This document shows positions 6,155 through 64,000 of a stretch of 64,000 nucleotides of DNA, one piece after another (the stretch's first letter is position 1; the number at the start of each line of letters is the position of its first letter). A model generated the notes under the pieces. The model worked only from the letters and a program-made list of their open reading frames with translations, searched no databases and had not been told where the DNA came from. This stretch comes from Candidatus Daviesbacteria bacterium. Its GTDB lineage: Bacteria > Patescibacteriota > Microgenomatia > Daviesbacterales > UBA10151. Location: NCBI GenBank assembly GCA_028715175.1, contig JAQUSJ010000002.1, positions 22,285 to 86,284 on the forward strand, written 5' to 3'. The position numbers and the translations under genes were made by a program.

Positions 6155-6160
6155 AACGAA

Positions 6161-6222
6161 TAGTCGTCAGCTGTCAGCTTTCAGTCGTCAGACTTTTTAT
6201 TTTCTAATCTGATAGCTACTCT
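6161..6222. repeat. heptamer-array hairpin element, copy 2 (between mreC and mreD)
   Basis: 'tagtcgtcagctgtcagctttcagtcgtcagac' - loop - 'tctgatagctact'. Confidence 0.8.
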
Positions 6223-14498: not shown

Positions 14499-14607
14499 CC
14501 TTCAGCTATCAGTCATCAGTCGTCAGATAATTGCAATTTAAGTCTGAAAGCTGACAGCTGAGAGCGAAGCCGCGCCAAAGGCGGGCGAAGCGATACTGAC
14601 GACTACT
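14498..14607. repeat. heptamer-array hairpin element, copy 3, with a nested GCGAAGC-type insert (14562-14595)
   Basis: 'ccttcagctatcagtcatcagtcgtcagat' ... 'agtctgaaagctgacagctga' + insert + 'ctgacgactactATG'. Confidence 0.8.
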
Positions 14608-15541: not shown

Positions 15542-15622
15542 CTTTCAGCTATCAGTCATCAGTCGTCAGACTGATATAATTTAAAAGTCTGAAAGCTGAT
15601 GGCTGAAGACTGACGACTATTT
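15541..15622. repeat. heptamer-array hairpin element, copy 4 (between def and fmt)
   Basis: 'gctttcagctatcagtcatcagtcgtcagac' - 'tgatataatttaaa' - 'agtctgaaagctgatggctgaagactgacgactattt' then ATG. Confidence 0.85.
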
Positions 15623-16327
15623 ATGAAAATCGCATTTCTAGGTACTCCGGATTTTGTTAAGTCAATCAGAAATGTCCTTGCCAAACACTACACTCTGGTA
15701 GATTCATTAGATGAGGCAGATCTTGGGGTAGTGGCTGCCTATGGCAGAATCCTGACAAAAGATGAATTAAATACCCCAAAATATGGCTGTATAAATATCC
15801 ATCCATCGCTTTTGCCAAAACACAGAGGCCCTTCCCCTATCCAGGAAGCCATATTAAAAGGTGATCGAATTTCCGGAATAACGGTTATCAAAATGGATGA
15901 GGAAGTGGATCATGGACCGATAATTTATCAAGAGGAAGTGGAGCTTTCTGATATGGATAATTTTGATACATTGAGTAAAAAAATGTTTCATCGGGCTAGC
16001 GAAATTCTACCCAAAATTATTGAAGATTTTATATCGGGTAAGACAAAACCAAGGTTACAGGATAACGCTCGAGCGACTCATTGTAACCGATTGACCAGAA
16101 AAAGCGGCTATTTTGATATTAATCCGCCAGCTGGCGGACCTCCACCTCCTGAGATCCTAGACAGAATGATTCGGGCATATCATCCCTGGCCGGGAGTTTG
16201 GACTAAATGGAATGGCAAAATTGTTAAATTTTATCCTGGTGGAAGAATCCAAATGGAAGGGAAAAAAGTTATATCGCTACAGGATTTTCTAAACGGCTAC
16301 CCTGATTTTCCTTTAAAGAAGCTTTAA
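15623..16327 (+). CDS. fmt: methionyl-tRNA formyltransferase (short form)
   Basis: 'INIHPSLLPKHRGPSPIQ' formyltransferase core; immediately downstream of def. Confidence 0.8.
   Translation: MKIAFLGTPDFVKSIRNVLAKHYTLVDSLDEADLGVVAAYGRILTKDELNTPKYGCINIHPSLLPKHRGPSPIQEAILKGDRISGITVIKMDEEVDHGPIIYQEEVELSDMDNFDTLSKKMFHRASEILPKIIEDFISGKTKPRLQDNARATHCNRLTRKSGYFDINPPAGGPPPPEILDRMIRAYHPWPGVWTKWNGKIVKFYPGGRIQMEGKKVISLQDFLNGYPDFPLKKL
16123..16138. repeat. 16-bp perfect palindrome TCCGCCAGCTGGCGGA in-frame in fmt
   Basis: Encodes 'NPPAGGPPPP'. Confidence 0.75.
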
Positions 16328-38600: not shown

Positions 38601-39112
38601 GTTTACTGGAAAATACTGAATAGTTACAGATTTTTTTGGTAAGCTCCATCCAGACAAAAAAGACCGTGGTGCGATAAAAAATAGTAAAAAAAGTAATACT
38701 TTTTTATATATAGATATCTTAAGTTATACTTTGATATATTATCCTTCAACAATAATTTCAGGTACAATTCCAGCTCTTGCAGTTTAGCTACAATCTAAGA
38801 TATAATCCATAAATCGCCTTTGTCAAAAACTGTCATTTAGACACTTTTTGCAAGCGATCTCGCGCCAGAAGAAAGGAGGGCGCTCCGATTGGCCAAAAAG
38901 GGTAATCGAAATTTATTCATATTTCAATGTTCTTCCTGTAAAAACAGAAATTACACTGCTACCAGAAATACGGTAAACATTAAGGAAAAGCTCGCTTTAA
39001 ACAAATTTTGTAAACATTGCCGGAAAACCACTCCCCACAACGAAGTCAAGCTTTAACTTCTTTTCTGCTTATTGACTTTTAATTATCGAACCTACTACTA
39101 TAATCATATAAC

Positions 39113-42119: not shown

Positions 42120-43466
42120 ATGTCTCAAGATGAAGCTGTGCCACAGGAACACCCCAAAGAACATCACGATCATGCAATTTTAAAATTCCCGGAAGGATTT
42201 TTGTGGGGCACAGCCACTTCTGCTCATCAGGTAGAGGGAAATAATATTCACAGCGACTGGTGGGAGTGGGAACAAACTCATCAACCGCCCCATTTGCGCT
42301 CAGGAAAGAGTTGTGACCAGTACCATTTATATGAACAGGATTTTGAACTGGCCAAAGAGTTAAATCATAATGCTCACCGCTTATCTATTGAATGGTCCAG
42401 GATTGAGCCTATTGAAGGGCAATTTGATACAGCTGAAATTGAACACTACAAAAAAGTCTTAAAGGCTTTAAAAGACCGCAAACTAACAGTCATGTTAACT
42501 CTCTGGCACTGGACTTTACCGAAGTGGGTGGCTGATAAAGGCGGTTGGGAAAATGGGGCAACTGTTAAATATTTTGAAAGGTTTGTCAGAAGAATCGTTC
42601 CCGAGATCTCGGAATTCGTTGATTTATGGGTAACCTTGAATGAACCTGGAGTGTATATTTATGAAACATACATTGAAAGGATTTGGCCTCACTCAAAAAA
42701 AAGCTGGGTTGGACAAGTCAAAGCTTATTTAAACCTGGTTTCTGCTCACAAAAGAGTCTACAAATACCTGCACTCAAGCTTCCCGGCCGGTAAACCGGTT
42801 GGCGTTGCCAATAATATACTTTCTTTTGAAGTCTATCATAAACATTCCATCGTCGAACAAATGGCAGTTGCTTTAAACGATCTTTTTGTTAACCATTTGT
42901 TTTATTTCTTAACCCGGGGCAGCCATGATTTCCTGGGAATTAATTACTATTTTAATATCCGTCTCAAAGGCAATAATTTGATATCTCAGAATGTGGGTCT
43001 GACACAGCAAACTCATGAAGTCTCTGATTTAGGTTGGGAGATTCATCCCGAAGGCATCTTTGAAGTTTTAACCGACCTGTCTGATGATTTACCTATCTAC
43101 ATTACCGAGTGTGGAATTGCTTCCACCAATGACGACAGAAGAAATCGCTTTTTAATTTCTTATTTGCAAGAAGTAGCCAGAGCCATTAAAGCCGGAGTTA
43201 ATGTCAGAGGATTCTTTTACTGGTCGCTGCTGGATAATTTTGAATGGCATTTGGGCTTTGAACCCAGGTTTGGGCTGGTGGAAATAGATTATACCAACTT
43301 AGAGCGCCATATCCGACCTTCAGCGCTGGTTTATACGGACATTATTCAACACAACGGCATTCCCCACTCCCTCCTCCGGTTCATCGGGCACACAGTCCAG
43401 GCAGAAGAAGTTTTGGAAAAAAGACAAAAAGAGATAGAAAAGGAGATAGAAAAGAAAAACAAATAG
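42120..43466 (+). CDS. glycoside hydrolase family 1 beta-glucosidase
   Basis: 'FLWGTATSAHQVEG' GH1 N-terminal signature; 'TLNEP' acid/base and 'YITECG' nucleophile. Confidence 0.85.
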   Translation: MSQDEAVPQEHPKEHHDHAILKFPEGFLWGTATSAHQVEGNNIHSDWWEWEQTHQPPHLRSGKSCDQYHLYEQDFELAKELNHNAHRLSIEWSRIEPIEGQFDTAEIEHYKKVLKALKDRKLTVMLTLWHWTLPKWVADKGGWENGATVKYFERFVRRIVPEISEFVDLWVTLNEPGVYIYETYIERIWPHSKKSWVGQVKAYLNLVSAHKRVYKYLHSSFPAGKPVGVANNILSFEVYHKHSIVEQMAVALNDLFVNHLFYFLTRGSHDFLGINYYFNIRLKGNNLISQNVGLTQQTHEVSDLGWEIHPEGIFEVLTDLSDDLPIYITECGIASTNDDRRNRFLISYLQEVARAIKAGVNVRGFFYWSLLDNFEWHLGFEPRFGLVEIDYTNLERHIRPSALVYTDIIQHNGIPHSLLRFIGHTVQAEEVLEKRQKEIEKEIEKKNK

Positions 43467-43530
43467 CTTTCAGTCGTCAGTCGTCAGATTTTAAGTCTGA
43501 CAGCTGAAAGCTGATAGCTGACGACTATTT
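43467..43530. repeat. heptamer-array hairpin element, copy 5
   Basis: 'ctttcagtcgtcagtcgtcagat' - 'tttaa' - 'gtctgacagctgaaagctgatagctgacgactattt' then ATG. Confidence 0.85.
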
Positions 43531-44433
43531 ATGTCCCACATACCCTTTACCATAACAGCCTATTTTTTCAATGCCTTGGCAGTTTTAGCCAACAAATTTT
43601 TGCTTAATAAAACCATTCCAGATCCTTTAATTTACATCTTTTATATTAGCCTGATCTCTTTACTGGCAATTCTAGCTTTACCTTTTACCCATATTCCTAA
43701 TTTAGAAGCTTTTACCCAGGCTTCAGTGTCCACCATTCTTTGGACCGCTGGAGCGTATTTTATGTTTAAAGCCCTAAAAATCGGCCAGGTTTCCCGGGTC
43801 ATCCCAATTATCGGCACGCTTATTCCCCTGATCCTTTTGATCTTTGCCTCGCAAACTTATGCCATCTCACAGACCCAAACCTGGGCGGTTTTGATCCTGA
43901 CAGCAGGCATGATTTTTTTAACTATGCAGGATATTTTACAAGGAAGCTTAAATAAACGGGAAATTGTCTTTGAAGTTTTATCTGCTGTCAGCTTTGCCAT
44001 ATCCTACATTATTCTAAGACAGGCATATCTTCAGCTAGACTTTTTTTCTGTGTTGGTTTGGTCAAGATTAATCCTGCTTCCATTTATTCTCATAGTGCTT
44101 CTGATCCCGACTTTACGCAGAAAAATTATCACCCCTGCCGGCTTACAAATCAATTTTTTCTCTAAAGAAGGCCTGGTATTTTTGGGAGGGCAAGCCAGCG
44201 GGGCCATTTCGGAATTTTTGATTCTTTTCTCAATTTCTCTGGCAAATCCGGCTTTGGTAAATTCCTTGCAAGGTACTCAGTATGTATTTTTGTTTATCCT
44301 GGCCATATTTTTATCCAAAAAATACCCCGCTATTTTTCAGGAAAAATATAATATTCTGAATGTATCTTCTAAAGTTGTAGGGATAGGTTTAATAGGAATC
44401 GGCCTCTACTTACTGACATTATCCGGAAGTTAA
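43531..44433 (+). CDS. EamA/DMT-family transporter (10 TM)
   Basis: Two five-TM repeats with Gly-rich helices. Confidence 0.6.
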   Translation: MSHIPFTITAYFFNALAVLANKFLLNKTIPDPLIYIFYISLISLLAILALPFTHIPNLEAFTQASVSTILWTAGAYFMFKALKIGQVSRVIPIIGTLIPLILLIFASQTYAISQTQTWAVLILTAGMIFLTMQDILQGSLNKREIVFEVLSAVSFAISYIILRQAYLQLDFFSVLVWSRLILLPFILIVLLIPTLRRKIITPAGLQINFFSKEGLVFLGGQASGAISEFLILFSISLANPALVNSLQGTQYVFLFILAIFLSKKYPAIFQEKYNILNVSSKVVGIGLIGIGLYLLTLSGS

Positions 44434-48050: not shown

Positions 48051-48743
48051 ATGGACGATAATAAGCAGAAAACTAAACCTACTAAGACGATAGATAATGG
48101 AAAGATGGAAGATAGTACTTTGAAGATGGAGGGTGGAAAATCAGAACAAGACGATCAATCCTCTACCATCAAAGTTCAATCTTCTACTGTCGATCTTCCA
48201 TCGTCAAAAAATGATAACCCTGATGCCCGCTGGTATGTTGTTCACACCTATTCCGGTCATGAGAACAAGGTTGCCTTGACCTTGAAACAGCGGGTTGAAT
48301 CAGAGCATCTGGAAGAGAAAATTTTAGATGTTTTGGTGCCTACGCAGGAAAAAATTGAGATCAAAAGCGGCAAAAAGGTCAATGTCAAAGAGAAAATTTT
48401 CCCTGGTTACATCTTAGTAAAAATGGTGTTGGATGATGCTTCCTGGCTGGCGGTCCGGACTACCCAGGGCGTAACCAGCTTTGTAGGTATGGGCAATAAA
48501 CCAACCCCGATCTCTGATAGTGAAGTTGCAACCATCGTCAAATTTACTCAAACAGAAGCTCCGATGTATAAACAGGTTTTTGCAGTTTCCGATGCGGTCA
48601 AGATTGTGGATGGACCTTTTGCCGACTTTATCGGTAAAATTGACTCTGTTGACGGCGAAAAAGGCAAAGTGAGAGTTTTGGTGTCCATATTCGGGCGCGA
48701 AACTCCGGTGGAACTGGACTTTTTACAAATAAAGAAAATATAA
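48051..48743 (+). CDS. nusG: transcription termination / antitermination factor NusG with a ~60-aa N-terminal extension
   Basis: NGN '[15 protein letters not shown]', KOW '[15 protein letters not shown]'. Confidence 0.85.
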
Positions 48744-48747
48744 ATCT

Positions 48748-49173
48748 ATGGCTAAAAAGATTAAAACATTGATAAAACTAAATATCCCTGCAGGAGAAGC
48801 TACTCCTGCTCCTCCGGTTGGCCCGGCCTTGGGTCAGCATGGTTTGCCTATTATGGAGTTTGTCAAAGCTTTTAATGATAGAACCCAGGATAAAAAAGGC
48901 AATATCTTGCCGGTTGTTATTACGGTTTACGAAGACCGCACTTTTTCTTTTATTACTAAAGAACCGCCGGTTGCGGAAATGATTAAAAAGACGCTGGGTT
49001 TGGAAAAGGGATCCGGAACTGCGCTTAAAGCTCCTGTAGGCTCACTAACGACAGCTCAAATAAAAGCTATTGCCGAAGCTAAATTGCCTGATCTAAATAC
49101 TAAAAATGTGGAAGCTGCGGAAAAAATAGTTGAAGGAACTGCCAAAAGCATGGGGGTGAAAATCGGTGGGTAG
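48748..49173 (+). CDS. rplK: 50S ribosomal protein L11
   Basis: '[23 protein letters not shown]'. Confidence 0.9.
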
Positions 49174-50107
49174 ACCAAGAATTAAAACAATTGATGATTC
49201 GGCTCCAGAAGTTGAAGAAAAAAAGCAAAAAACTAAACCCGGTAAGGCGGAGCGAGCGAAGGTTGAAACTGACAAAGCAAGTGGCGAAGTTGAAACCACA
49301 GAATCTGTCATTGCGAGCGAAGCCGAAGGCGAAGCGCGGCAATCTTCCGTGGATGAAAAAGATCGCCACGTCGTCCCACAAAGCGGGACTCCTCGCGATG
49401 ACGAAAAAAAAGAAACAAAGAAATCACAAAAACCAGGAAAAGCCAAACCAAGAAGCAAGAAATACCAGGAAGCAGTCAAAAATCTGGACAGAACCAAAAC
49501 ATATCCACTTCCAGAAGCAGTTGACATGGTCAAAAAAATGTCTTATTCTAAAATTAATGCCACCTTAGAAGCGCATATAAACACCGCGCAAACGGGTATT
49601 CGTGGTTACGTCTCCTTACCCTATGCGAAAGGTCGTCAGTTACGCATCTTATGTTTTGGGCCCTCGACCGCCTCGCAACTTGAGGGAGTAGTTTTTGGTA
49701 CCGATTCCACTATTGAAGAGATTAATAAGCAGAGCTTGTCAGTTAAGGCTGGTAAAGGCAAAATTGATTTTGATCTGATTATTAGCACACCTGATTGGAT
49801 GCCTAAACTTGCCAAAGTGGCAAGAATTTTAGGGCCAAGAAGCTTAATGCCCAATCCAAAAAACGGCACAATCACCAATGATATAAAAAAAGCAGTAGAG
49901 AGTTTTCAGACAGGAAAAACAGAGTATAAAACCGAAGCCAAAGCTCCTGTTATCCATATAGCAATGGGCAAATTGGATCAGCCTAACGAGGAACTGGTAG
50001 CTAATATTAAAACTTTGCTGCAGACTTTAGGTAAAACCAGAATTAAAAAGATCACCCTTTCCCCCACCATGGGGCCAGGGGTTAAAATAGATCTAGCTTC
50101 TGTTTAA
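49166..50107 (+). CDS. rplA: 50S ribosomal protein L1 with a ~95-aa charged N-terminal extension
   Basis: L1 core from 'KKYQEAVK...'; the extension contains a fragment of the GTCATTGCGAGCGAAGC element. Confidence 0.85.
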
Positions 50108-51110: not shown

Positions 51111-51203
51111 TAGTAGCTATCAGTCATCAGCTCTCAGCTGTCAGACTTAATATCTGATGACTGATGACTGATGACTGATGACTGATGACTGATGACTGAT
51201 AAA
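51111..51203. repeat. heptamer-array hairpin element, copy 6; its right arm is expanded into a (CTGATGA)x6.4 tandem array
   Basis: 'tagtagctatcagtcatcagctctcagctgtcagac' - 'ttaatat' - 'ctgatgactgatgactgatgactgatgactgatgactgat'. Confidence 0.8.
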
Positions 51204-52073
51204 ATGTTTTCAACTTTTAAACAAAAATTATTTTTAGGAATATATATTTTTCTTCTGCTAACGATCCCTGTCGGATCATATCTTGTTTCACAATACCAAA
51301 CTATTCAAAGCAGCGCAAAGGAGCAAAAAAACACCAAATCAATAGCCAGGGTCACACCAAAACCTACAACTTCACCCTCCAAAGAACTGCTAAGCGCTTC
51401 TCAAACCAGCGTCTCTCAGGGCGATTCCGCCTCGCCTGCCCCGTCTCCCACCGCTGATCCGACAATAGCCACCTCGTACGGCCCTACGCTATCTTTCAAA
51501 GCGACTTTGGAAGGCAGTCCCAAAGATAATCAAACAACCAGGATGTTTATAGGGATTGCGGAAGGAGCGCTCTCATCAAACCCCAAGTTCCTGCTTAGTT
51601 TTAGCGTGAATTTACCTGCTTCCGGGGAATACGGCAATATCTCCCTGGCCGGTTTGAATTCCGGAACACAATATACGGCACTCTTAAAGGGCGCTTCCCA
51701 GATTGCCGTCTCTTCTGTATTTACTATGTCACCTTCGGTTTCTACCTTAAACAACAATGAGCCTTTAAACCTAATCAGCGGAGATTTAAATGATGATAAT
51801 GTTATAAACAGCGCTGATTATTCTATTGCTCAAAAAGCGCTTGGTTCAACCTCAAAATCTTCCAACTGGAATGCCAATATCGATTTAAATAAAGATGGAG
51901 TAATAAATGCTTTTGATTTAGGCTTTATTACCAAAAACATGGGCCAAACCGGCGCTTCAGGCGCCTGGACCTCCCCTTTGCCTCAAGGCGCAACACCTTC
52001 TGCAAATCTTACTTCCCCTTCTATTGGTGGACCAGAAAGCTCCGGTGGCTATTGGATCTGGGTACCAAAGTAA
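51204..52073 (+). CDS. secreted dockerin-repeat protein (the ORF-track start at 51192 lies inside the heptamer array)
   Basis: Signal/TM 'LFLGIYIFLLLTIPVGS'; dockerin repeats 'DLNDDNVINSAD' and 'DLNKDGVINAFD'. Confidence 0.6.
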   Translation: MFSTFKQKLFLGIYIFLLLTIPVGSYLVSQYQTIQSSAKEQKNTKSIARVTPKPTTSPSKELLSASQTSVSQGDSASPAPSPTADPTIATSYGPTLSFKATLEGSPKDNQTTRMFIGIAEGALSSNPKFLLSFSVNLPASGEYGNISLAGLNSGTQYTALLKGASQIAVSSVFTMSPSVSTLNNNEPLNLISGDLNDDNVINSADYSIAQKALGSTSKSSNWNANIDLNKDGVINAFDLGFITKNMGQTGASGAWTSPLPQGATPSANLTSPSIGGPESSGGYWIWVPK

Positions 52074-52074
52074 T

Positions 52075-52413
52075 TTAAGCCAGTTTGGCTCGGTGTTGTA
52101 AGATATTAGCCCAAGTTAGAATCCGCTCTGCCCAGTATAATTTTTCTTTTTCATTCTTTACTTCATTTCTGAATTTTTTAAAATCCGCCTGAAACTTTAT
52201 CAAAGTGGGTTTGAAATCTTCTGAAATATTTTGATCTGATAAATCGTCTAAATAATTTTCTGTTTGTTTGATAAATATATCGATGAGTGATTTATGGCTA
52301 ATATACGAATCTGCAATCCATTCACTAAGCCTTGCCATATTAACAGAAACGTTTAGTATTTGTTTATCTAAAGGCAAATCTGTTTGATGAGAAAAATGAG
52401 GACTATGTTTCAC
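52075..52413 (-). CDS. hypothetical protein (112 aa)
   Basis: ORF only. Confidence 0.3.
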   Translation of the reverse strand: MKHSPHFSHQTDLPLDKQILNVSVNMARLSEWIADSYISHKSLIDIFIKQTENYLDDLSDQNISEDFKPTLIKFQADFKKFRNEVKNEKEKLYWAERILTWANILQHRAKLA

Positions 52414-52757
52414 AGTAGTAGTTTCTCCACCACAACCTTAAATTTATCTCTGATTTCCTGCGACAGAATATCTCTGCTTGAATTTTCTTGATTAGGTCTA
52501 ACGTTAATCATGGAATTGTAATCTATTGTACCAGTTGCAAAATCTATACCGCCGCCCCACAAATTTTCCTGTTTGCATCCATATTCTAAGAGTACCTGTT
52601 CCTCGTCGTAATGCATTGCTGCTCCGCCTGCCAATATGCCTTTTTCAACATCCACCACAACTTTAGTATAGTTACCAAACTCATAACACATTTTTTCTAC
52701 TTGCTCTTCTGTAGCCTTTCTGGTCAAAACTATTGTCATTGACAAACATAATACCAT
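52410..52757 (-). CDS. hypothetical protein (115 aa)
   Basis: ORF only; 4-nt overlap with the downstream ORF. Confidence 0.3.
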   Translation of the reverse strand: MVLCLSMTIVLTRKATEEQVEKMCYEFGNYTKVVVDVEKGILAGGAAMHYDEEQVLLEYGCKQENLWGGGIDFATGTIDYNSMINVRPNQENSSRDILSQEIRDKFKVVVEKLLL

Positions 52758-52822
52758 AAGATAAAATACTTTTTGCTTAAGACAGTGAGCATATACATAA
52801 GACTCACCGAGGCGAATTAAAT

Positions 52823-52899
52823 TAGCTATCAGTCTTCAGCTATCAGCTTTCAGACCTAAAAATTGTCTGACGACTGATGACTGACAGCTGACGACTATT
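52823..52899. repeat. heptamer-array hairpin element, copy 7 (upstream of rplJ); followed at 52900-52923 by the small hairpin CCTCG-TTTAA-CGAGG and a T-run
   Basis: 'tagctatcagtcttcagctatcagctttcagac' - loop - 'tctgacgactgatgactgacagctgacgactatt'. Confidence 0.8.
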
Positions 52900-52923
52900 C
52901 CTCGTTTAAGCGAGGATTTTTTT

Positions 52924-53448
52924 ATGGCTAAAACAAGACAACAAAAAGAAGATTCAGTTGCAAAATTATCAGAACAGCTAAGCAAGGCCAAGTCTGTAGT
53001 TTTTGCAGACTATAAAGGTTTGAGCATGAAACAATTATCCAATCTTCGGGATCAACTTCGTGAAGTAAACGGCGAATTTACTATTACCAAAAATACTCTA
53101 CTTCAACGCGCCCTACCAACTACCAACTACCAACTACCAACTGAATTAGAGGGTCCAACAGCCACACTTTTTGCATATGATGACGAAATTTCTCCTATCA
53201 AAATATTAGTCAAGACCTTAAAAGATGTTGCTTTGGGCAAAATAAAAAGCGGTTTCTTTGGAGGTACTGCATTAGATGAAGGAAAAATACTTCAACTTGC
53301 CGCTCTCCCTACAAAGTTAGAACTAAAAGGCCAGATCGTCGGAATCCTGGCTGCTCCTTTGCAAGGCATGGTTTCTGTACTTAATGGAAATTTACGTAAT
53401 CTAGTTTATGCATTAAATCAAATCAAAATATCGAAGGGAGGTGAATAA
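52924..53448 (+). CDS. rplJ: 50S ribosomal protein L10
   Basis: 'KSVVFADYKGLSMKQLSNLR'; contains the (CTACCAA)4 array. Confidence 0.85.
   Translation: MAKTRQQKEDSVAKLSEQLSKAKSVVFADYKGLSMKQLSNLRDQLREVNGEFTITKNTLLQRALPTTNYQLPTELEGPTATLFAYDDEISPIKILVKTLKDVALGKIKSGFFGGTALDEGKILQLAALPTKLELKGQIVGILAAPLQGMVSVLNGNLRNLVYALNQIKISKGGE
53113..53140 (+). repeat. (CTACCAA)x4 heptanucleotide tandem array inside rplJ
   Basis: 'ctaccaactaccaactaccaactaccaa' encoding 'PTTNYQLPT'. Confidence 0.9.
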
Positions 53449-53449
53449 A

Positions 53450-53521
53450 TAGCTATCAGTCATCAGCTTTCAGCTATCAGACTTAAAAATCTGAAGACTG
53501 ACGACTGAAGACTGAAAGCTT
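53450..53521. repeat. heptamer-array hairpin element, copy 8 (between rplJ and rplL)
   Basis: 'atagctatcagtcatcagctttcagctatcagac' - 'ttaaaaat' - 'ctgaagactgacgactgaagactgaaagct'. Confidence 0.85.
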
Positions 53522-53527
53522 ATTAAT

Positions 53528-54109
53528 ATGGCAGATGATCAAAAACAAGATCAAGTAGTAGAAGAGACAGCGAAGTCTGAAACTGATAAAACCACCCCGG
53601 ACGGTGGTAGCGTGAGCGAAGCGAAGGCTGACTCCTCCGAGGTGAATGCAGCAGAAGCTCCAAAAGAGGCTGAACCTGTAAAAGAGCCAAAAGTAGAAGA
53701 GTCTAAAAAAGCTTCTAAACCAGTTTCAGCTAATCTGGAAAAAATCATAGAACAGATTGAAAAACTGTCTGTTTTAGAGTTGGCTGATTTAGTTCATGCG
53801 CTGGAAGACAGATTTGGTGTTTCGGCTTCAGCTCCGGTAGCAGCTGCAGCCGCAGGCGCAGGTCCAGCAGCAACAGGTGAGCCGGCAGAGGAAAAAACAA
53901 CATTTAATGTTGTCCTCTCGGGTGCAGGAGCAAATAAAATTGCAGTTATTAAAGCTGTCAGAGAACTCGTCCAAACTTTGGGCCTTAAAGAAGCCAAAGA
54001 TTTGGTAGAAGCAGCTCCAAAACCTGTTTTGGAAGGAGTTAATAAAGCCACAGCTGAAGAAGCTAAAACTAAATTAACAGCCGCAGGAGCAACAGTTGAA
54101 TTACAATAA
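53528..54109 (+). CDS. rplL: 50S ribosomal protein L7/L12 with an unusual ~60-aa N-terminal extension
   Basis: '[19 protein letters not shown]' and the CTD '[25 protein letters not shown]'. Confidence 0.85.
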
Positions 54110-54116
54110 TCTTTCT

Positions 54117-54264
54117 AAGAGCGGCGAAGTCGCAAGTAGTCAAAAAATGTTGTTAGTTTTGCGTAACTAACTTCGATGATTCGAGATCATTAGTAGACGC
54201 AAAACTAACACAAGTAAGCAAGTCTCTACCGTGCGAGCGGTTTTTTGCACTGCGACGAACCGCT
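54117..54264. mobile_element. ~148-bp MITE-like element with imperfect TIRs (GTCGCAAGTAGTCAAAAAATG / CGGTTTTTTGCACTGCGAC) and an internal 13-bp perfect hairpin, intergenic copy
   Basis: Its termini are nearly identical to those of the copy at 56428-56576, while the middle differs. Confidence 0.65.
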
Positions 54265-54317
54265 CAAATACCACCCCTTGACACTCTCTGTTTTGTTATG
54301 ATATACAAAGAGTTAGT

Positions 54318-54554
54318 ATGGCAGACAAATTATCACTTGAGAATTTACCCGATCTTTTAACCGTCAGAGAAGTTGCAGAAGTCTTACGCGTTTCCGCCTT
54401 AACTATCAAACGCTGGGGTAAAAGAGGAAAACTACCTGCAATAAGGATAAATAGCCGGGGTGACCGCAGGTATAAGAAAGAAGCCGTCCTCTGGTTATTG
54501 GGCATCACTCAGAAAAGTAACCCTGCTGATTCTCCTTCTTCTAGTTCATACTAA
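54318..54554 (+). CDS. excisionase-family HTH DNA-binding protein
   Basis: 'LTVREVAEVLRVSALTIKRWGKRGKLPAIRI'. Confidence 0.5.
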   Translation: MADKLSLENLPDLLTVREVAEVLRVSALTIKRWGKRGKLPAIRINSRGDRRYKKEAVLWLLGITQKSNPADSPSSSSY

Positions 54555-54629
54555 CTTCCTTTTATTTAGCACTCTACTTACAATTTTTGCTAATTGGGGA
54601 TGAATATGTTGTTGGAATAGTAAAAAGTA

Positions 54630-55136
54630 TCACTCAGTCGTGATTTGGGGGTGGACACGATAGTAAGGGTTTGGTTCAAAGGCAATTTCCCCTCTTTTAT
54701 CAACTACATAATATGCAAATCCTCTTTTATCCGATATCGACTTTGGAACTTTGTATTTCTCGTCTAGATAGCTATTCTTCAAAACTATCAAAAAACTATT
54801 TCCTGTATTAACCAGGCAAACAAACCAGCTTGCCGGAACATTAACTTGTCTGTACGGATTTAATCTAACCATCTTAAATTCCTTCGCTTCTTCAGATTCA
54901 TCATTCCTCTGCATTAGTAAAATTCCAGAGCCGTAAAGACATTGGTATGTTTGTACGCCGGGGAAATTGTTAAAATAGCCTGAAGTTTTGTTAAATTCTC
55001 CTCCATTAAACCCCTGGGAAATTACAAATATCACCTGATCATTATCCGCTAATATATAATACGGTGTTTTAACACCATTATTTACTTTCTCCATCAAGAC
55101 AGGTCGTAAGTCCTTATGTGTTTTAAGTTTGATCAT
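54630..55136 (-). CDS. hypothetical protein, possibly a cupin-fold sugar-modifying enzyme
   Basis: Beta-rich 168-aa ORF next to glycosyltransferases; no firm motif. Confidence 0.3.
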   Translation of the reverse strand: MIKLKTHKDLRPVLMEKVNNGVKTPYYILADNDQVIFVISQGFNGGEFNKTSGYFNNFPGVQTYQCLYGSGILLMQRNDESEEAKEFKMVRLNPYRQVNVPASWFVCLVNTGNSFLIVLKNSYLDEKYKVPKSISDKRGFAYYVVDKRGEIAFEPNPYYRVHPQITTE

Positions 55137-55986
55137 AAAATAATATTAACCTTAAATACTTAAATAATACCAGCTGTCTTTTAATCCTCCATGGCTGAAT
55201 GACTAATCTAAACAGCCATTCAAACCCTGATTTTCTTACCATCTTAGGTGCCCTGCGTACTCTACCGGAGAGATAATCGAATGCTCCCCCAACCCCCATG
55301 GCAACACGCACAGGAATCTTATCTAAATTTTTGGCAATCCATTTTTCCTGTTTTATATGTCCAAAAGCCACAAAAAGAATATCAGTAGGAGGTATTATGT
55401 ATTTTGTATTACGCGAAGACATATCTTTTCCTGCTTTCTCCCTTGCTACATAATACTTACTACTTACTACTTCTTGAGGGTTACCATCCTTATCAATTAT
55501 TCCTCCAGAAGAAACATAACTAACCTTAAGGTTTGGGTATTTCCGCAATAAGCGCTCTGCAGTTTCCTTTGCTACCCCACCATTGCCTCCTAAAAAGCCT
55601 GTTGTAAAGCCTTTTTCGGCTGACAGCTTACAAAGCGCTTCCATAAAATCTGTTCCAGTCACTACATCAAACTGCATCATAGGTTTTACTGGAAAAAAGA
55701 ACAGCGGCCAAAGCAGTAATCTTTCCAACCTGCTTTTTCTAAGTAACCAATCAGACAAACCAAGGCTGGAACTATCTGGAATAGCCAAATCTGCCTTATT
55801 TAGAATCCCCCTGAATTCTTTATCTTTTTGGGCTGCCAAAATAAATTCCAAATTAGGAGTCACAATGTAATGTTTACCAGTCCGACAGGCGGACTTGTTC
55901 CGGATCCACTTTTCCGCAACAACAAGAGCCTCTGTTAAATTAACCTTGTCAATTTTGACTCCTAAAATATCTATTTTCATAATCAT
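55123..55986 (-). CDS. WecB/TagA/CpsF-family glycosyltransferase (GT26)
   Basis: 'IDILGVKID', 'FVAFGHIKQEKWI', 'GVGGAFD' family motifs. Confidence 0.7.
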   Translation of the reverse strand: MIMKIDILGVKIDKVNLTEALVVAEKWIRNKSACRTGKHYIVTPNLEFILAAQKDKEFRGILNKADLAIPDSSSLGLSDWLLRKSRLERLLLWPLFFFPVKPMMQFDVVTGTDFMEALCKLSAEKGFTTGFLGGNGGVAKETAERLLRKYPNLKVSYVSSGGIIDKDGNPQEVVSSKYYVAREKAGKDMSSRNTKYIIPPTDILFVAFGHIKQEKWIAKNLDKIPVRVAMGVGGAFDYLSGRVRRAPKMVRKSGFEWLFRLVIQPWRIKRQLVLFKYLRLILFYDQT

Positions 55987-57237
55987 TCAAAGCGCTTCCA
56001 GTACTTTAAGTGTTCCCCTGGCACACCTCTCCCACGAAAATCTCTTAATATTTAAAAATCCTGCCTCAATTATTCTTCTCTTCATATCTTTGTTCATAAT
56101 TTCTACCATCCCCTTTACTATATCACTAGTAGAATACGGGTCTACAAAAATTGCACCTCCGCCATCTGACAAACCTGCAACTTCCGGCATAGATGATATA
56201 TTAGAGGTTAAAACCGGACATCCGCAGGCTTGAGCTTCCAAGATCGGCAAACCAAATCCTTCAAAAAGCGAAGGAAAGGTTAAAGCTATTGCTCCGGAGT
56301 ACAAAGCAGGTAAATCTTTCACAGGCACATACCCCAAAAACTTAACCCTGTCTTCAATCCCCAGTTGCTTTGGCAGAGCATAAATTTTTTCACTCATCCA
56401 ACCTTTTCCGCCTACAATGATAAGTTTCAGCGCAGCGAAGTCACAAGTAGTCAAAAAATGTTGAGGATTTTGTGCTGATTTTCTTAATGATTGAGGATAA
56501 CGGTCTTCCACAAAATTCTCACAAGCGAGCAAGTCTCTACCGTACGAGCGGTTTTTTGCACTGCGACGAGCTGCGAATTTTGCAAATGCTTTTATTAACC
56601 TTTCCAGATTTTTCCTTGGCTGTACTGTGCCTACAAACAAAAAGTATTTTCCGGGTTTTAACCCATAATGGCTCAAACTATTAACTAATAGATCAAATTT
56701 AACTGGCCTAAACAGATTTTGATCATACCCCTCATAAATCACTTCTATTCTCCTCTGATCTATTCCTGTCTTTTTAACAAGATTATTCTTTGTAGCCTTT
56801 GATACGGCAATTATTTTGGTGGCGGTTTTAAGTTGATATCTTTGCATGAAGCCCAAATAGATTCTTTGTTTAATCTGATGCATTGAAGACAGGTATTCGG
56901 AACCCAAATCATGTACCGTTACCACAGTTTTTAATCCGGGATATCTAATTACCGGTAAGGTATGCGCCGGCACAAACAATACATCCAGATTATCCCTGAA
57001 TGTTTGTATTGCCAATCCACCCTGAGTCCAAAGTCTTAACCAATTAATAGTTCTAAATCGGAAATTATCTGGCCAGCCTTGCAAGGGGACGCCTTGCGTG
57101 CCTAACGGACGTAAATACACAATGTATTGATTGATTCGATCAATTTTGGCTAGATTTTTTAATAGCTGATAGGAGTAATTTTCTGTTCCTGTCCGCTGAC
57201 CTGTAAATGCCCTTGACCCATCAAAACCAATAACCAT
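55987..57237 (-). CDS. GT4-family glycosyltransferase carrying a ~49-aa in-frame insertion encoded by the MITE-like element
   Basis: C-terminal 'EGFGLPILEAQACGCPVL' (EX7E); inserted linker 'AARRSAKNRSYGRDLLACENF...'. Confidence 0.7.
   Translation of the reverse strand: MVIGFDGSRAFTGQRTGTENYSYQLLKNLAKIDRINQYIVYLRPLGTQGVPLQGWPDNFRFRTINWLRLWTQGGLAIQTFRDNLDVLFVPAHTLPVIRYPGLKTVVTVHDLGSEYLSSMHQIKQRIYLGFMQRYQLKTATKIIAVSKATKNNLVKKTGIDQRRIEVIYEGYDQNLFRPVKFDLLVNSLSHYGLKPGKYFLFVGTVQPRKNLERLIKAFAKFAARRSAKNRSYGRDLLACENFVEDRYPQSLRKSAQNPQHFLTTCDFAALKLIIVGGKGWMSEKIYALPKQLGIEDRVKFLGYVPVKDLPALYSGAIALTFPSLFEGFGLPILEAQACGCPVLTSNISSMPEVAGLSDGGGAIFVDPYSTSDIVKGMVEIMNKDMKRRIIEAGFLNIKRFSWERCARGTLKVLEAL
56428..56576. 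mobile_element. second copy of the ~148-bp MITE-like element, inserted in-frame inside the GT4 glycosyltransferase gene
   Basis: 'cagcgaagtcacaagtagtcaaaaaatgttg...caagcaagtctctaccgtacgagcggttttttgcactgcgacga'. Confidence 0.65.
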
Positions 57238-58339: not shown

Positions 58340-59509
58340 TCACTTAAGGTTTACACCAAACAGGTTTGGTTCCGAGGCGGTCGGGGTTGGAAAAGAACTA
58401 ATAATCACCAGCCTTGATGAATCAAGCCACGGAAAAACAAAATCATCCTGGAAACTACCGGCATAAATAACAGCTTTATTTGTCCCGTCAAAATCCGCAA
58501 TTGATATTATCCCTTCTTCAATCAAGATAATATGCATTGAATTGGGCAACCAAATATGAGCTCTAGCCGCAGGTAGTGAGTATTCTTTTCCATCTTCCAA
58601 GTTATAAACCTTGAGGTCTGCTTCGGTCTTACCGGCCATAAATTTGGTTTCATCCGGAGACCAGCGCACGATAGCTGCGGAAGAGGCAATTTGACGGAAA
58701 GTTGTATTTTTAATTGCCAGTACCCTTGCCTCGTTTTTTAAACGGGTGTCTTCTTCCCAGGATTTTAAGGTAACTTGCAGCAGGGGTGTAATATCGCGGG
58801 GATCGGAATTTAATCTGTCGGATTCCAAAAGGTAATTGTTATCCCCTACTGTTGCCAAAATTTGCTTGGAGTCGGCAGACCAACGCAATGCAGCTTTCGA
58901 AAAATCTATACTTGTGCTTTGAACAATCTGATGAGGCTCGCTGGAGCGGGCAAAAGAAATAGGTTGATTGCGGGTTTGTGTCCAAACCCAAACTCCCCCC
59001 TTTTTATTAGCAACACCGACAGGTGTTGATGACGGCACGATGTAGGCAAGCTTACTTCCGTCAGGGCTCAAAGTCGGATTTTCCACCCCATTAAAAGTCA
59101 GCGGATAAATAGTGGGGATGGCAGGAAAAAGAGTTACCTTGACAGCTGTCACCAACCCTTCTTTGACGCTCACTTGCTTCTCCCAGGGAATAAATCCTTC
59201 CTTGACGATCCTGACAGAGTAATTTTTGGGAGAAAGCGAAGAAACTGTGGTATTTGTAGCGGTAGTAAGGTGACCATCTATAAAAACCGAGGCTGCATCA
59301 GGTTCCGAAGTTATAGTAATAATTCCGGTTCCAACAATCCTCTTTTCTTTTGGTGAAAAGGTATAACCTTTTGCCAAAAAAATTGCAATAGCGGCAATAA
59401 CACCAATTGCTATTAAGGTTGCAATAGAAATAACAAATTTTTTAGACAATCGGAGTGCGCCCCCTTTCCTAGCGCGCGAGATCGCTTGCAAAAATTGTCT
59501 AAATGACAA
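58340..59509 (-). CDS. membrane-anchored PEGA-domain plus TolB-like beta-propeller protein
   Basis: N-terminal TM helix; PEGA-like 'ITSEPDAASVFIDG'; WD40/TolB-like repeats 'WSADSKQILAT', 'RWSPDETKFMAG'. Confidence 0.45.
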   Translation of the reverse strand: MSFRQFLQAISRARKGGALRLSKKFVISIATLIAIGVIAAIAIFLAKGYTFSPKEKRIVGTGIITITSEPDAASVFIDGHLTTATNTTVSSLSPKNYSVRIVKEGFIPWEKQVSVKEGLVTAVKVTLFPAIPTIYPLTFNGVENPTLSPDGSKLAYIVPSSTPVGVANKKGGVWVWTQTRNQPISFARSSEPHQIVQSTSIDFSKAALRWSADSKQILATVGDNNYLLESDRLNSDPRDITPLLQVTLKSWEEDTRLKNEARVLAIKNTTFRQIASSAAIVRWSPDETKFMAGKTEADLKVYNLEDGKEYSLPAARAHIWLPNSMHIILIEEGIISIADFDGTNKAVIYAGSFQDDFVFPWLDSSRLVIISSFPTPTASEPNLFGVNLK

Positions 59510-59554
59510 TTTTTGACAAGGGCAATCTTTGATATCTATAGTGTACTTCTTTTA

Positions 59555-61005: not shown

Positions 61006-62019
61006 TCAATGTATTATAACATCCTCCACTTTCGTTGAACCATCATTAAATACTGATACAACCGCGAACCTGGGAGCTTGTGGGTTTCTTTCAATCGTGA
61101 CAGCTCCGATTGTAACCAGGGACAAATTTGTTTTAGGTTCACTGTACTCTGAAAAGAAATGAATATCTCCAGCAAAAATCTTTGTTGCTCCCGCTTCTTT
61201 TAGTTGAAAAATCAACCCGCCTGCCTGTAATTTCAAGCTTTTCTCCACCCACCCCATAACATGATCGGAAGAAGGATGATAAAGCGGTTCATGCATAAAT
61301 ACAAAAAGTCCTTTTGCTCCGATTTTCTTAGGTTTCTCCAATTCCGTCGCAATCCATGCAGTCTGTTTAGTATCGAAACCAGTGTAGTTATCGCTATTAT
61401 CCAGAAGCAAGAATTCAAAATTTTCAAGTTCAAAAGATTGATACGACGGACCAAAAACCTGACTGAAACAAGAACTTGGCAATAAAGACCTGTTCCGAGA
61501 GTCCCAAAGATCATGATCGCCCGGTATTAGAAAGTAGCGCAGAGAAGAGTTATCAAATTCTTTTTTTGCATTTTCCAACTCTGCAATTGTCCCGACTTCG
61601 GTGTAATCTCCCAAACCAATGATGAATTTTAGATCCGGATACTTATGCCTGCCTTGTTTAATAGCCTTCCCCAAATCAGCATTATCGTTGTGAGAATCTG
61701 CGACAATCAAAAATCGAAAAGCCAAATTTGAATTTAGCGGCTTAGAAGTTTCCGCAGGCACACTGGATTGATTAACTAATACTTTTTGACTTAAGTTAAG
61801 TTTAGATAGAGCTGCAGATATTTGTTTCGGCGTTCTTGATACAACAACATTATTAAAAATTGCTTGAGGATCGATCTTTAGCGGATCTAAACCGGAAAAA
61901 TGCTTATAGGCTGTGTACGTGCCGAGTAGTAAAACCGTAAACATCACCAAACTCAAAACCAGTCTGAAGAAAACAAGTATTACATTTGAGGATCTTTTTT
62001 TATAATGTCTTTTGAACAT
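61006..62019 (-). CDS. calcineurin-like metallophosphoesterase
   Basis: 'VADSHND', 'GLGDYTE', 'IPGDHDLW', 'FMHEP' MPP motifs; N-terminal TM helix. Confidence 0.65.
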   Translation of the reverse strand: MFKRHYKKRSSNVILVFFRLVLSLVMFTVLLLGTYTAYKHFSGLDPLKIDPQAIFNNVVVSRTPKQISAALSKLNLSQKVLVNQSSVPAETSKPLNSNLAFRFLIVADSHNDNADLGKAIKQGRHKYPDLKFIIGLGDYTEVGTIAELENAKKEFDNSSLRYFLIPGDHDLWDSRNRSLLPSSCFSQVFGPSYQSFELENFEFLLLDNSDNYTGFDTKQTAWIATELEKPKKIGAKGLFVFMHEPLYHPSSDHVMGWVEKSLKLQAGGLIFQLKEAGATKIFAGDIHFFSEYSEPKTNLSLVTIGAVTIERNPQAPRFAVVSVFNDGSTKVEDVIIH

Positions 62020-62022
62020 AAA

Positions 62023-62090
62023 ATAGCTTTCAGTCTTCAGCTATCAGCTTTCAGACTTTTAATAAGACCTGAAAGCATTGCGCTGATCTG
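62023..62090. repeat. heptamer-array hairpin element, copy 9 (its left arm supplies the stop codon of the IVS-protein gene)
   Basis: 'atagctttcagtcttcagctatcagctttcagac' - loop - 'cctgaaagcattgcgctgatctgg'. Confidence 0.7.
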
Positions 62091-62402
62091 GTCAACCTCG
62101 CTAATAACTGCATTAATCGTTTTCTCGTCTGCCATCTCAAGACTTATTGCAATTTCTAGTCCGGCAATTACTTCATATGCTGATCTTTGTGCCATTCTCA
62201 AAAATCTCATAAATTCTGGGTCTGATCCGGAACCCGATCCTTCTGCGATATTCAAACAAATACTCACTGCCGCTCTTCTTATTTGGTCTACCAGACCATA
62301 TTTCTCTTCTTGCGGAAACTTAGAAGTAATTTTGTAAACAAGCGATACAAACTGAATTGATCGCTGCCACACTGTAAGTTTTCTGAATTTATGTGTATTC
62401 AT
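62037..62402 (-). CDS. four-helix-bundle protein (23S rRNA-IVS-protein family)
   Basis: 'LTVWQRSIQFVSLVYKITSKFPQEEKYGLVDQIRRAAVSICLNIAEG' family signature; both gene ends lie inside heptamer-hairpin repeat arms. Confidence 0.7.
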   Translation of the reverse strand: MNTHKFRKLTVWQRSIQFVSLVYKITSKFPQEEKYGLVDQIRRAAVSICLNIAEGSGSGSDPEFMRFLRMAQRSAYEVIAGLEIAISLEMADEKTINAVISEVDQISAMLSGLIKSLKADS

Positions 62403-62434
62403 GTCTGACGACTGATGACTGATGACTATTAAAC
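62403..62434. repeat. single arm of the heptamer-array element (AGTCATCAGTCATCAGTCGTCAGAC) between argS and the IVS-protein gene
   Basis: Reverse complement of 'gtctgacgactgatgactgatgact'. Confidence 0.7.
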
Positions 62435-64000
62435 TTACATTCTCTCCGGCGCTTCTATCCCTAACAGATTCAAACCTTTCTTTAAAACCTTACTTACTTC
62501 CAAAGATAACTTTAATCTAAAATCTTGCTTTTCTGATTCCAAAATTCTGCATTCCTGGTAAAAAAGATTGTAGAGCCTGGAGAGCTCAACCAGATACGAG
62601 GCTATGAGGTTTGGATGTCCTAATTTCAACGCTTCTTCCACAGTTTCAGAAAAATAAAGAAGCTGTCTTAATAGCGCTCTCTCCTGTTTGTCTAACGCAA
62701 CACTCTCCATTGGTATTTTCGGAAGTTTGCTGGAATTTCGGAGAACCGATTGGATCCTGGCAAACGTATATTGGACATAAGGCCCGCTATCCCCATCCAG
62801 TGAAACTGATTGCGCAAGATCAAATATCATATTTGGCCTTGGGGAGAATTTTAGATAAGAAAATTTGATTGCGCCCAAAGCTACAATCCGGACAACTTCC
62901 TGATCAATTCCCAGACTACTCTTTTTCATTACTTCCCTGACTTTTTCAGATACTACATGATACAAATCATCAACAGTTACCACATTGCCGGTCCGTGATG
63001 ACATTTTACCTTCACTCAAATCAACAACACCATAAGACAAATGGTATTTTTTCTGCTTTAGATACGGGAAAATGAGCTCTATTGCCTTAATCACAACCTG
63101 AAAATAACCCTCCTGCTCGCTTGCAACAACATGGATTGATTTCTCGTAATTAAAAGCATCATATTCCGCTTCTGCCAAACCGATTTCTTTACCCTCATAT
63201 GTCGGATTACCGGCTGAAGTAACAAAAACACGGTTATGCAAACCGTATTTTTCTCCAGGAAAAATAATTGCCCCATCGCTTTCCTCAAAAACTTTGCCCA
63301 GGTTTTTAAGTACTATTTGCTTTCCTCTCTCAAAAACTTCACTTTCAAAAAAACACCGGTCGTATTTGATTCCCAGGAGCCGGTAAATAGGTTCAAAGTA
63401 TTCTAAACTCCAGGACCTGGTCAATTGATAGATTTCTTGAAATTCTTTTCTTTTTTGATAAAGACCGATGTTAATTTTGTCTATTTCTTCCTTAAAAACG
63501 GAATCTTCTTCGTACGATTTATTACCTTCAGCATATGCCCTGCCTAAAAAATCGGCCTTTTCTTCCAAACTTAACTCCTTTGAGGGCAAACCAAGCTTTT
63601 CTATCCCCCAAATAGCCTTGGCAATATGCAAGCCAATATCACCCTGATAATTAGCTCTAAATACGGTGTGACCTTGTGACTGATAAATTCTGCAAAGACT
63701 CTCTCCCAAAATAAAAGTCCGGAGATGTCCGACGTGTACTTCTTTCAAAGGATTAACATGACCATATTCAATAAGCACTTTTGAGGTTTCGGTCGATTTT
63801 TGCAACAGATCCAAGTCGCTGGCATTTTTGACAAGTTCGGAGTCTTTAATGAAAAAATTAATAAAACCCCCGCCGGCTACTTCTATTTTCTCCAGATAGT
63901 CCACTTTTCCAAATTTCTCTAAAATTTCATTAGCAACTTCTGTTGGGGACTGCTTACCTTTAGGCGATTCTAGTTTAGCAAGCTGTAAGGCTATATTCGA
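62435..64000 (-). CDS. argS: arginyl-tRNA synthetase (partial; the N-terminus lies beyond the window end)
   Basis: 'HVGHLRTFILGE' HIGH region, 'YQGDIGLH'; the reading frame continues to position 64000 without a start. Confidence 0.8.
   Translation of the reverse strand, partial: SNIALQLAKLESPKGKQSPTEVANEILEKFGKVDYLEKIEVAGGGFINFFIKDSELVKNASDLDLLQKSTETSKVLIEYGHVNPLKEVHVGHLRTFILGESLCRIYQSQGHTVFRANYQGDIGLHIAKAIWGIEKLGLPSKELSLEEKADFLGRAYAEGNKSYEEDSVFKEEIDKINIGLYQKRKEFQEIYQLTRSWSLEYFEPIYRLLGIKYDRCFFESEVFERGKQIVLKNLGKVFEESDGAIIFPGEKYGLHNRVFVTSAGNPTYEGKEIGLAEAEYDAFNYEKSIHVVASEQEGYFQVVIKAIELIFPYLKQKKYHLSYGVVDLSEGKMSSRTGNVVTVDDLYHVVSEKVREVMKKSSLGIDQEVVRIVALGAIKFSYLKFSPRPNMIFDLAQSVSLDGDSGPYVQYTFARIQSVLRNSSKLPKIPMESVALDKQERALLRQLLYFSETVEEALKLGHPNLIASYLVELSRLYNLFYQECRILESEKQDFRLKLSLEVSKVLKKGLNLLGIEAPERM

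Follow-up and report, generated by a model that had tools for sequence, protein, structure and literature searches.

Palindromic repeats that sit in frame within genes are a textbook peculiarity of Rickettsia. The Rickettsia palindromic elements (RPEs; Ogata et al. 2000) are palindromic repeats of ~150 bp which occur in spacers and, with unusual frequency, in frame in unrelated housekeeping genes (PMC10969869). Here we analysed a 64-kb stretch of a Candidatus Daviesbacteria genome (the window, to which all results on the source genome refer), in which a small palindromic element was found downstream of the ribosomal protein gene rplL and again within the gene of a GT4-family glycosyltransferase. 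The copies probably belong to a non-autonomous palindromic repeat family that is specific to Ca. Daviesbacteria (Microgenomates, candidate phyla radiation (CPR)) and behaves as the CPR counterpart of the RPEs. The element resembles RPEs in its size, its palindromic nature, its residence in a small reduced genome, its location both in spacers and in frame in unrelated genes, and a peptide that is compatible with the host fold. It differs in that the phylum is unrelated, and the likeness is meant as an analogy by behaviour, with no claim of membership by sequence. Moreover, its copy number per genome is far lower, its arms covary strongly, its orientation is strand-specific, and one protein loop is occupied across species by many unrelated palindrome families. 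To our knowledge, the reuse of one loop by unrelated palindrome families is not a described property of RPEs. In the literature searched, no description of such elements in CPR bacteria was found.

Three other groups of small repeats invite comparison. [quoted passage not shown] Like classical MITEs, the Daviesbacteria element is small (<~600 bp) and non-coding, lacks a transposase gene, and has inverted termini and hairpin transcripts; unlike them, it shows no target-site duplication (TSD) or cognate insertion sequence (IS) in the loci read, a low copy number, variable complementary ends and a strict strand bias. With SPRITEs it shares a hairpin followed by a T-run immediately after stop codons, but it is also found in frame in four protein families, and its A6/T6 pairing lies inside a longer helix. 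The palindrome-associated transposable elements (PATEs) derived from IS200/IS605 and the REP/BIME sequences with their RAYT transposases are hairpin-dependent single-strand elements. The Daviesbacteria element is similar to these in that a folded hairpin would be recognised, TSDs are absent and the orientation is tied to one strand. In contrast, no Y1/HUH gene was seen near any copy and there is no conserved 4-5-nt target at the left end; the element is also much larger than REP sequences.

Two copies downstream of rplL and within the GT4 gene

Two full copies of the element were found in the window, both on the + strand and 2311 bp apart. Their limits were set at the outermost base pairs, and the features discussed below are as follows.

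54119..54265, + strand: copy 1, intergenic, starting 9 nt past the stop codon of rplL; the conserved promoter-like box TTGACA of the HTH_17 gene lies downstream of it
54119..54147, + strand: left arm of the outer helix of copy 1, with GAGCGG, the conserved CGAAGTC box, a variable stem and the A6 box at 54142-54147
54152..54209, + strand: central hairpin of copy 1, with a 12-bp stem (54152-54163 / 54198-54209) and a loop with the conserved AATGAT-like motif
54228..54246, + strand: small hairpin ACCGTGCGAGCGGT of copy 1 and then T6 (54241-54246), terminator-like on the + strand
54241..54265, + strand: right arm of the outer helix of copy 1, with T6, GCACTGCGAC, GAA and CCGCTC
56430..56575, + strand: copy 2, antisense and in frame in the GT4 gene, with A6 at 56453-56458, the central stem at 56463-56474 / 56509-56520 and T6 at 56552-56557
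55987..57237, - strand: gene of the GT4-family glycosyltransferase (416 aa; Pfam Glyco_transf_4 and Glycos_transf_1), host of copy 2; residues 222-270 derive from the - strand of copy 2
49249..49303, + strand: partial third copy, the left half of an element of the AAAGCA/TGCTTT subfamily, translated in the N-terminal extension of rplA (L1); a weak nhmmer match (E 0.15)
53528..54109, + strand: rplL (L7/L12, 193 aa, with an N-terminal extension), upstream neighbour of copy 1, identified by synteny and Pfam in the related locus L005; stop codon TAA at 54107-54109

The left ends (GCGAAGTCRCAAGTAGTCAAAAAATGTTG) of copies 1 and 2 matched over 29 nt and the right ends (AGCAAGTCTCTACCGTRCGAGCGGTTTTTTGCACTGCGACGA) over 42 nt, each with one mismatch, which agreed with the initial annotation that two copies with shared termini lie after rplL and in the GT4 gene. 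When each 24-29-nt terminus was searched with up to 3 mismatches, only these two sites were found in the window, and none was expected from 100 shuffles. The central ~60 nt of the copies were unlike in sequence. Nevertheless, a 12-bp stem was retained (GTTAGTTTTGCG/CGCAAAACTAAC in copy 1 and GAGGATTTTGTG/CACAAAATTCTC in copy 2), five pairs of which had changed compensatorily, so that the earlier description of a hairpin kept over diverged centres held. The partial copy at 49249-49303 contains a 25-nt exact match (CTGACAAAGCAAGTGGCGAAGTTGA) to the copy in the rplL N-terminal extension of another locus, L006.

Folding of both copies indicated that the whole element forms a long hairpin, in which the A6 box pairs with the T6 box and the outermost bases are paired. 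The RNA fold of copy 1 was calculated to be -56.7 kcal/mol with a z-score of -5.9 on the + strand and -6.0 on the - strand, and as DNA the z-score was about -5.9 on either strand. For copy 2, the RNA fold was -48.2 kcal/mol with a z-score of -3.6 on the + strand and merely -1.5 on the - strand, and as DNA it was hardly above the shuffles (z of -1.2 to -1.35). Thus both copies folded as hairpins, as had been anticipated, with copy 1 far stronger relative to shuffled sequences; the weaker fold of copy 2 is as expected of a decaying or protein-constrained copy. Copy 2 was present unchanged on an independent Logan contig (L004, run SRR22315506), which excludes an assembly artefact.

A terminator scan flagged the small hairpin, 5 bp followed by T6, on the + strand of both copies. 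Copy 1 follows rplL in that orientation, whereas most copies of the family present the opposite strand to the local mRNA. The + strand of copy 1 may accordingly add a terminator or a 3'-end hairpin to the rplJL transcript. In the fold of the whole element, the T6 is paired with the A6 box as well.

Copies in related genomes and the GT4 insertion

Copies in relatives were sought in DNA fetched around orthologs (loci labelled L below; proteins are labelled P) and by one gapped scan, GAAGTCN{4,12}GTCAAAAAATGTTG, of 185,579 species genomes; within fetched sequence they were recovered with nhmmer plus regular expressions. About 17 further copies were obtained, all on Daviesbacteria-type contigs, one of which is labelled Gammaproteobacteria. 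They lie at at least eight unrelated loci in at least six other assemblies, which bore out the proposal of a dispersed palindromic repeat rather than a chance pair. Across the family the element measures about 147-155 bp and has no open reading frame (ORF) of its own. There were 1-4 copies per contig, and the exact left-end scan of the 185,579 genomes gave 1-3 per species genome.

In spacers, the copy downstream of rplL in L005 (GCA_028712705.1) was 98% identical to copy 1, and a second copy in L005 lies between a metallophosphatase gene (Metallophos) and ndk. At the same Metallophos-ndk site, L006 and L011 carry a 41-nt internal-deletion derivative of the element. Further spacer copies were found in L008 (downstream of groEL), L022 (after efp), L009 (after a phosphoribosyltransferase gene), L010 and L013, and three times within 4 kb in L020 (behind rpsB, and in spacers separating thyA and two dcd-like genes). 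Many copies start within a few bases of a stop codon. L020 (CAZAZW010000004.1), with its three Daviesbacteria element copies in 4 kb, was deposited as a metagenome-assembled genome of an uncultured gammaproteobacterium, yet it probably stems from the CPR and was misbinned or mislabelled.

In-frame copies were found in unrelated proteins, namely GT4, WecG, an uncharacterised protein of ~285 aa, and the N-termini encoded by rplL and rplA. The GT4 copies were those of the window, L006 and L007 and, by peptide similarity, of P0043, P0011, P0014, P0028 and P0119; the WecG copies were those of L006 and P0122; and the copies in the ~285-aa protein were those of L019/P0131-P0135, P0142, P0145, P0175 and P0230. 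L006 contains a full copy in its rplL N-terminal extension. An exhaustive peptide-profile search of representatives also returned several ORFs of 51-89 aa, evidently gene calls over spacer copies. This search gave just 10 matches, as 50%-identity clusters hide insert-bearing members, and the 51-residue profile gave a single match among 90 candidates in a word-indexed protein database, whose prefilter is too strict for such a profile. P0127, P0128 and P0130 were rejected as low-complexity false positives. The exact 20-mer GCGGTTTTTTGCACTGCGAC had no match in the genome or viral contig sets, the nearest relative differing inside the 20-mer; three matches in metagenome contigs were judged to be due to chance.

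With these copies at hand, a one-off local duplication or gene conversion over 2.3 kb, without any repeat family, is refuted and its chance of being right is negligible. It would account for just two full copies in the 64-kb window, but not for copies at at least eight unrelated loci in at least six other assemblies, nor for the nearest relative of copy 2, which lies in a different gene of another genome.

The GT4 reading frame stays open across copy 2, and the peptide AARRSAKNRS...CDFAALK (residues 222-270, ~49 aa), with the segments DLLACENFVEDR, YPQSLR and SAQNPQHFLTTCDFAALK, comes from it. Among the six frames of copy 2, the only one free of stops is that of GT4 itself. In 120 orthologs, the segment from LERLIKAF to (L)VIAGSKGW measured 24-26 aa in the shortest members, compared with 70 aa here. 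These lengths demonstrate that copy 2 is a genuine insertion in GT4, and the claim that it adds about 49 residues in frame was upheld, since orthologs lack the segment or carry a different one. The initial annotation was to be abandoned only if no other copies existed and the segment was conserved in orthologs, and it was found that neither is the case. In an AlphaFold2 model built with 58 orthologs, the GT-B fold was confident (predicted template modelling score of 0.83), and residues 232-263 had a predicted local distance difference test score of <50. The insert had been assigned to the inter-domain linker, which the model contradicts: it lies in the C-terminal Rossmann domain, in the loop from the first helix (209-231) to the second strand (271-275). 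According to the model, the insert is a disordered surface loop that the host fold can accommodate. Taken together, the open frame and this model suggest that it is translated, as a loop of ~49 residues from the - strand of the element.

Removal of the insert as an intervening sequence, by an intron-like RNA or an intein-like peptide, would leave mature GT4 without it. The position, which varies among orthologs, and the strong hairpin would be in keeping with this; however, no ribozyme or intron family was matched, the peptide has no intein-like length or motifs, and the same element is also located in non-coding spacers. In addition, all of the 120 orthologs keep the frame open over inserts of very different lengths, and selection for this would be required only of translated inserts. 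We consider such removal highly improbable.

Paired arms, insertion site and strand orientation

The 15 full copies of alignment A4 were analysed with RNAalifold. The outer helix comprised 24 pairs, 17 of which showed double-sided compensatory changes. Overall, 90.8% of the helix cells were paired, compared with 76.6% after the 3' partners were shuffled (none of 500 shuffles reached the observed value), and when the partner was slid by 1-3 columns the paired cells fell to about 40%. From outside to inside, the element consists of a variable outer stem, conserved boxes, a covarying stem, the A6/T6 pairing and the central hairpin, in the loop of which the AATGAT-like motif is conserved. The conserved boxes are subterminal, (A)GCGAAGTC (CGAAGTC) on the left and GACGAGCT on the right, and the A6/T6 pairing is replaced by AAAGCA/TGCTTT in a sister subfamily. 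The outermost 4-7 pairs vary by copy and yet are complementary, e.g. GGGCAGC/GCTGCCC, AAACAGC/GCTGTTT and GAGCGG/CCGCTC. Because these pairs differ but stay complementary, the terminal inverted repeats (TIRs) of the initial annotation are the arms of a helix and not conserved recognition ends. Non-Watson-Crick cells were unevenly distributed, with 16 A.C and 4 G.U when read on the + strand. As an indicator of the RNA strand, these counts would favour the - strand; this use of them was rejected, since in the rplL copies they are at odds with the strand that is transcribed, and biased mutation is equally able to produce them.

The rplL-HTH site is empty in L006, where the stop codon is followed directly by the flank (TAA/AAATGACACC, i.e. 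TAA/AAATGAC). The filled site in the window reads TAA/TCTTTCTAAGAGCGG...CCGCTC/AAATACC, with ~156 nt inserted relative to L006. TSDs, a check that the initial annotation had called for, were absent from this filled-versus-empty pair, and no direct repeats were found at 13 other flank pairs. Copies on the same contig were co-oriented, two full and one partial in the window, two in L005, four in L006 and three in L020, and this shared orientation holds across host genes on opposite strands (rplL and rplA versus GT4, WecG and ndk). The + strand of the element lay on the C-rich strand, with a GC skew of -0.06 to -0.21, in each of the 10 loci that span at least 8 kb.

These results bear on the classical MITE, that is, a deletion derivative of an IS with TIRs which is mobilised in trans by a DDE transposase and leaves TSDs. 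The element is indeed small, non-coding and dispersed, with inverted termini, and internally deleted 'mini' derivatives exist (in L006/L011, and as peptide remnants in P0142 and P0014). But no TSD was found at the filled and empty rplL sites or at other flanks, variable and still complementary outermost pairs are unexpected for TIRs bound by a transposase, and a strict orientation bias is not expected of a symmetric TIR element. No transposase with matching ends was present in any locus examined, no IS carrying the ends of the element was detected in about 250 kb of related loci, and the copy number is low. This origin is thus improbable. What stands of the MITE-like label is the small size, the inverted termini and the dispersal, whereas the lack of TSD and transposase, the low copy number, the covarying ends and the strand bias do not fit it.

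An unlikely explanation, though one with several points in its favour, is a functional structured module kept by selection, such as a bidirectional terminator, an mRNA 3'-end stabiliser, a protein-binding hairpin or a small RNA, with the genic copies as by-products. The strong covariation and the conserved loop motif agree with it, as do the many copies that begin within a few bases of a stop codon, the hairpin and T6 flagged on the + strand of both window copies, the asymmetric mispairs of the helix, and the rplL-downstream copy, which is 98% conserved where its flanks are 87-94% identical. On the other hand, at least four proteins contain in-frame copies that place a long hairpin and U6 in the mRNA, where an efficient terminator would truncate essential transcripts. 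Furthermore, the orthologous rplL site is empty in L006 and holds unrelated palindromes in L023, little of the folding advantage is left in the genic copy 2, and the wobble asymmetry does not track the transcribed strand in the rplL copies. There was no Rfam match either: with Rfam 15 at the gathering threshold the window gave only tRNAs, and at E <=10 the element gave only generic miRNA-hairpin models far below threshold. For spacer copies such as copy 1, with its hairpin and T6 right after rplL, such a function may apply.

We therefore favour the non-autonomous palindromic repeat family, in which copies would spread, or be exchanged, between loci. They would persist only where they are tolerated, just past stop codons or, in the one stop-free frame, in surface loops and termini of proteins, and would be translated when they land in frame in a surface loop. 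Because of the single orientation relative to strand composition, the lack of TSDs and the covarying arms, the active or selected form may be a folded single strand, as in hairpin-dependent single-stranded DNA elements, rather than a substrate for DDE cut-and-paste on TIRs; an enzyme acting on such a strand would likewise be presumed.

Several observations weigh against a mobile repeat of this kind. A conserved target motif was sought at the flanks and none was found, the flanks being A/T-rich with no fixed 4-5-nt target by the left end, and no transposase, HUH or other recombinase gene was linked to any copy in the Pfam annotations of the fetched loci. There are few copies per genome, and no transposition event was seen directly. 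An orientation linked to replication and one linked to the dominant direction of transcription are not cleanly separable; the rplL and rplA copies are the only ones that tell the two apart. A functional RNA or DNA structure would be expected to covary strongly and to conserve a loop motif, so these features could reflect selection rather than selfish spread. Finally, translation of the inserts is deduced from conservation of the frame, i.e. at the level of sequence.

If the CPR, another lineage of reduced genomes, indeed shows the same behaviour as Rickettsia, this suggests that it arises generally where genomes are compact and spacer DNA is scarce. In annotation terms, it would mean that many length differences, low-complexity 'linkers' and N-terminal extensions of CPR proteins, including ribosomal proteins and NusG, may be derived from repeats and may not be functional domains.

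Shared insertion sites and other repeats

The GT4 site differs between close relatives. The syntenic region of L005 was 87-95% identical to the window in DNA across the alignable part, but at the same codon position its GT4 gene contains an unrelated GC-rich palindrome, TGGCTCGGGGT...ACCCCTCGCCA. No other copy of this GC-rich insert was found in any fetched locus; its palindromic ends and a related insert in P0052 suggest that it may be a repeat as well. Copy 2 was 88% identical to the copy in the ~285-aa protein gene of L019, which belongs to the same genome as L005, and 82% identical to the groEL-downstream copy of L008, compared with just 52-53% for the GT4 copies of L006 and L007. As copy 2 is closer to copies at other loci than to those in GT4, the copies do not track the host gene. 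Judging from these identities, either the GT4 site would have been filled more than once, or copies would have been homogenised within genomes.

The GT4 loop was at least 10 aa above the minimum in 69 of the 120 orthologs, and the inserts fell into many unrelated peptide families. A comparison with 120 orthologs of the second host, the ~285-aa protein, showed that in each host the same loop (in the second host, between FKFLPNW and LExLAKWFQ) is filled with dozens of different palindrome-derived peptides. The families common to both hosts include the present one, FGRQPRSLARQRKRP.., ARGPASS.SRRASS.. and others, and where DNA was read, the other inserts were also palindromes with spacer copies. 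For instance, L023 carries the element GTCATTGCGAG...CTCGCAATGAC in its GT4 loop and also in the spacers downstream of rplL and upstream of mreB. The ~285-aa protein of Microgenomates (L019 110-1090; P0131-P0250) is itself conserved and has no Pfam family, a few orthologs being tagged DUF5457, and virtually all orthologs differ in the palindrome-derived peptide that one of its loops holds.

As a tentative extension, Microgenomates would harbour many kinds of strand-specific hairpin elements, which would overwrite the same few permissive sites in conserved proteins again and again. These sites would be the alpha1-beta2 loop of GT4, the WecG loop, the loop of the ~285-aa protein, and the N-termini of L1, L7/L12 and NusG. 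If this is true, insertion or replacement would be hairpin-targeted and single-stranded, without a known enzyme, with occupants that differ between ~90%-identical genomes, and much of the variation in protein length among CPR bacteria would come from palindromic repeats. The strand bias, the covarying arms, the absence of target duplications and the reuse of one site by unrelated palindromes would offer a testable handle on a possibly new hairpin-dependent mechanism. In population genomics, inserts differing between ~90%-identical genomes may serve as markers with fast turnover.

Other extensions and inserts in the window were noted. The rplA gene (49166-50107) encodes an L1 of 313 aa, whose N-terminal extension holds a translated palindrome, GTCATTGCGAG...CTCGCGATGAC, at 49307-49403; it is of the same family as the L023 element and lies directly after the partial copy at 49249-49303. 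The nusG gene (48051-48743) has an N-terminal extension of ~55 aa with palindromic DNA, GACGATAGATAATGG...CCATCGTC, at about 48085-48215, and the peptide of the extension is similar to inserts in the GT4 loop of other species (P0062, 44% over 43 aa, with an E of 0.003 in a small database). In wecG (55123-55986, - strand), a 70-nt in-frame insert at 55412-55482 is missing from the WecG of L005. Its peptide VVSSKYYVAREKAGKDMSSRNTKYII matches second-host inserts of other species (P0171 and P0199), and the insert has TACTTACTAC-type repeats in common with 13034-13729.

Long inverted repeats of the heptamer (TCAGNNN)n with T-runs occupy many spacers of the window, e.g. both sides of rplJ. They look like the standard terminator hairpins of the genome, and in the GT4 loop of other species such heptamers are translated as SRQLSAFR... 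Their positions are given below.

(TCAGNNN)n inverted repeats: 2310-2393, 6151-6226, 14491-14561, 15534-15625, 43452-43533, 51111-51204, 52818-52903, 53445-53529, 62018-62064 and 62377-62441

A 72-nt repeat at 38808-38879 and 59460-59531, 85% identical and inverted, contains the promoter/operator-like TTGTCAAAAAYTGTCATTTAGACA, and the segment 59451-59551 is absent from L005. Two small ORFs on the - strand, 52075-52413 and 52410-52757 (region 52094-52761), lack a counterpart in the corresponding syntenic stretch of L005; at a similar place, L024 carries a pair with DUF5674.

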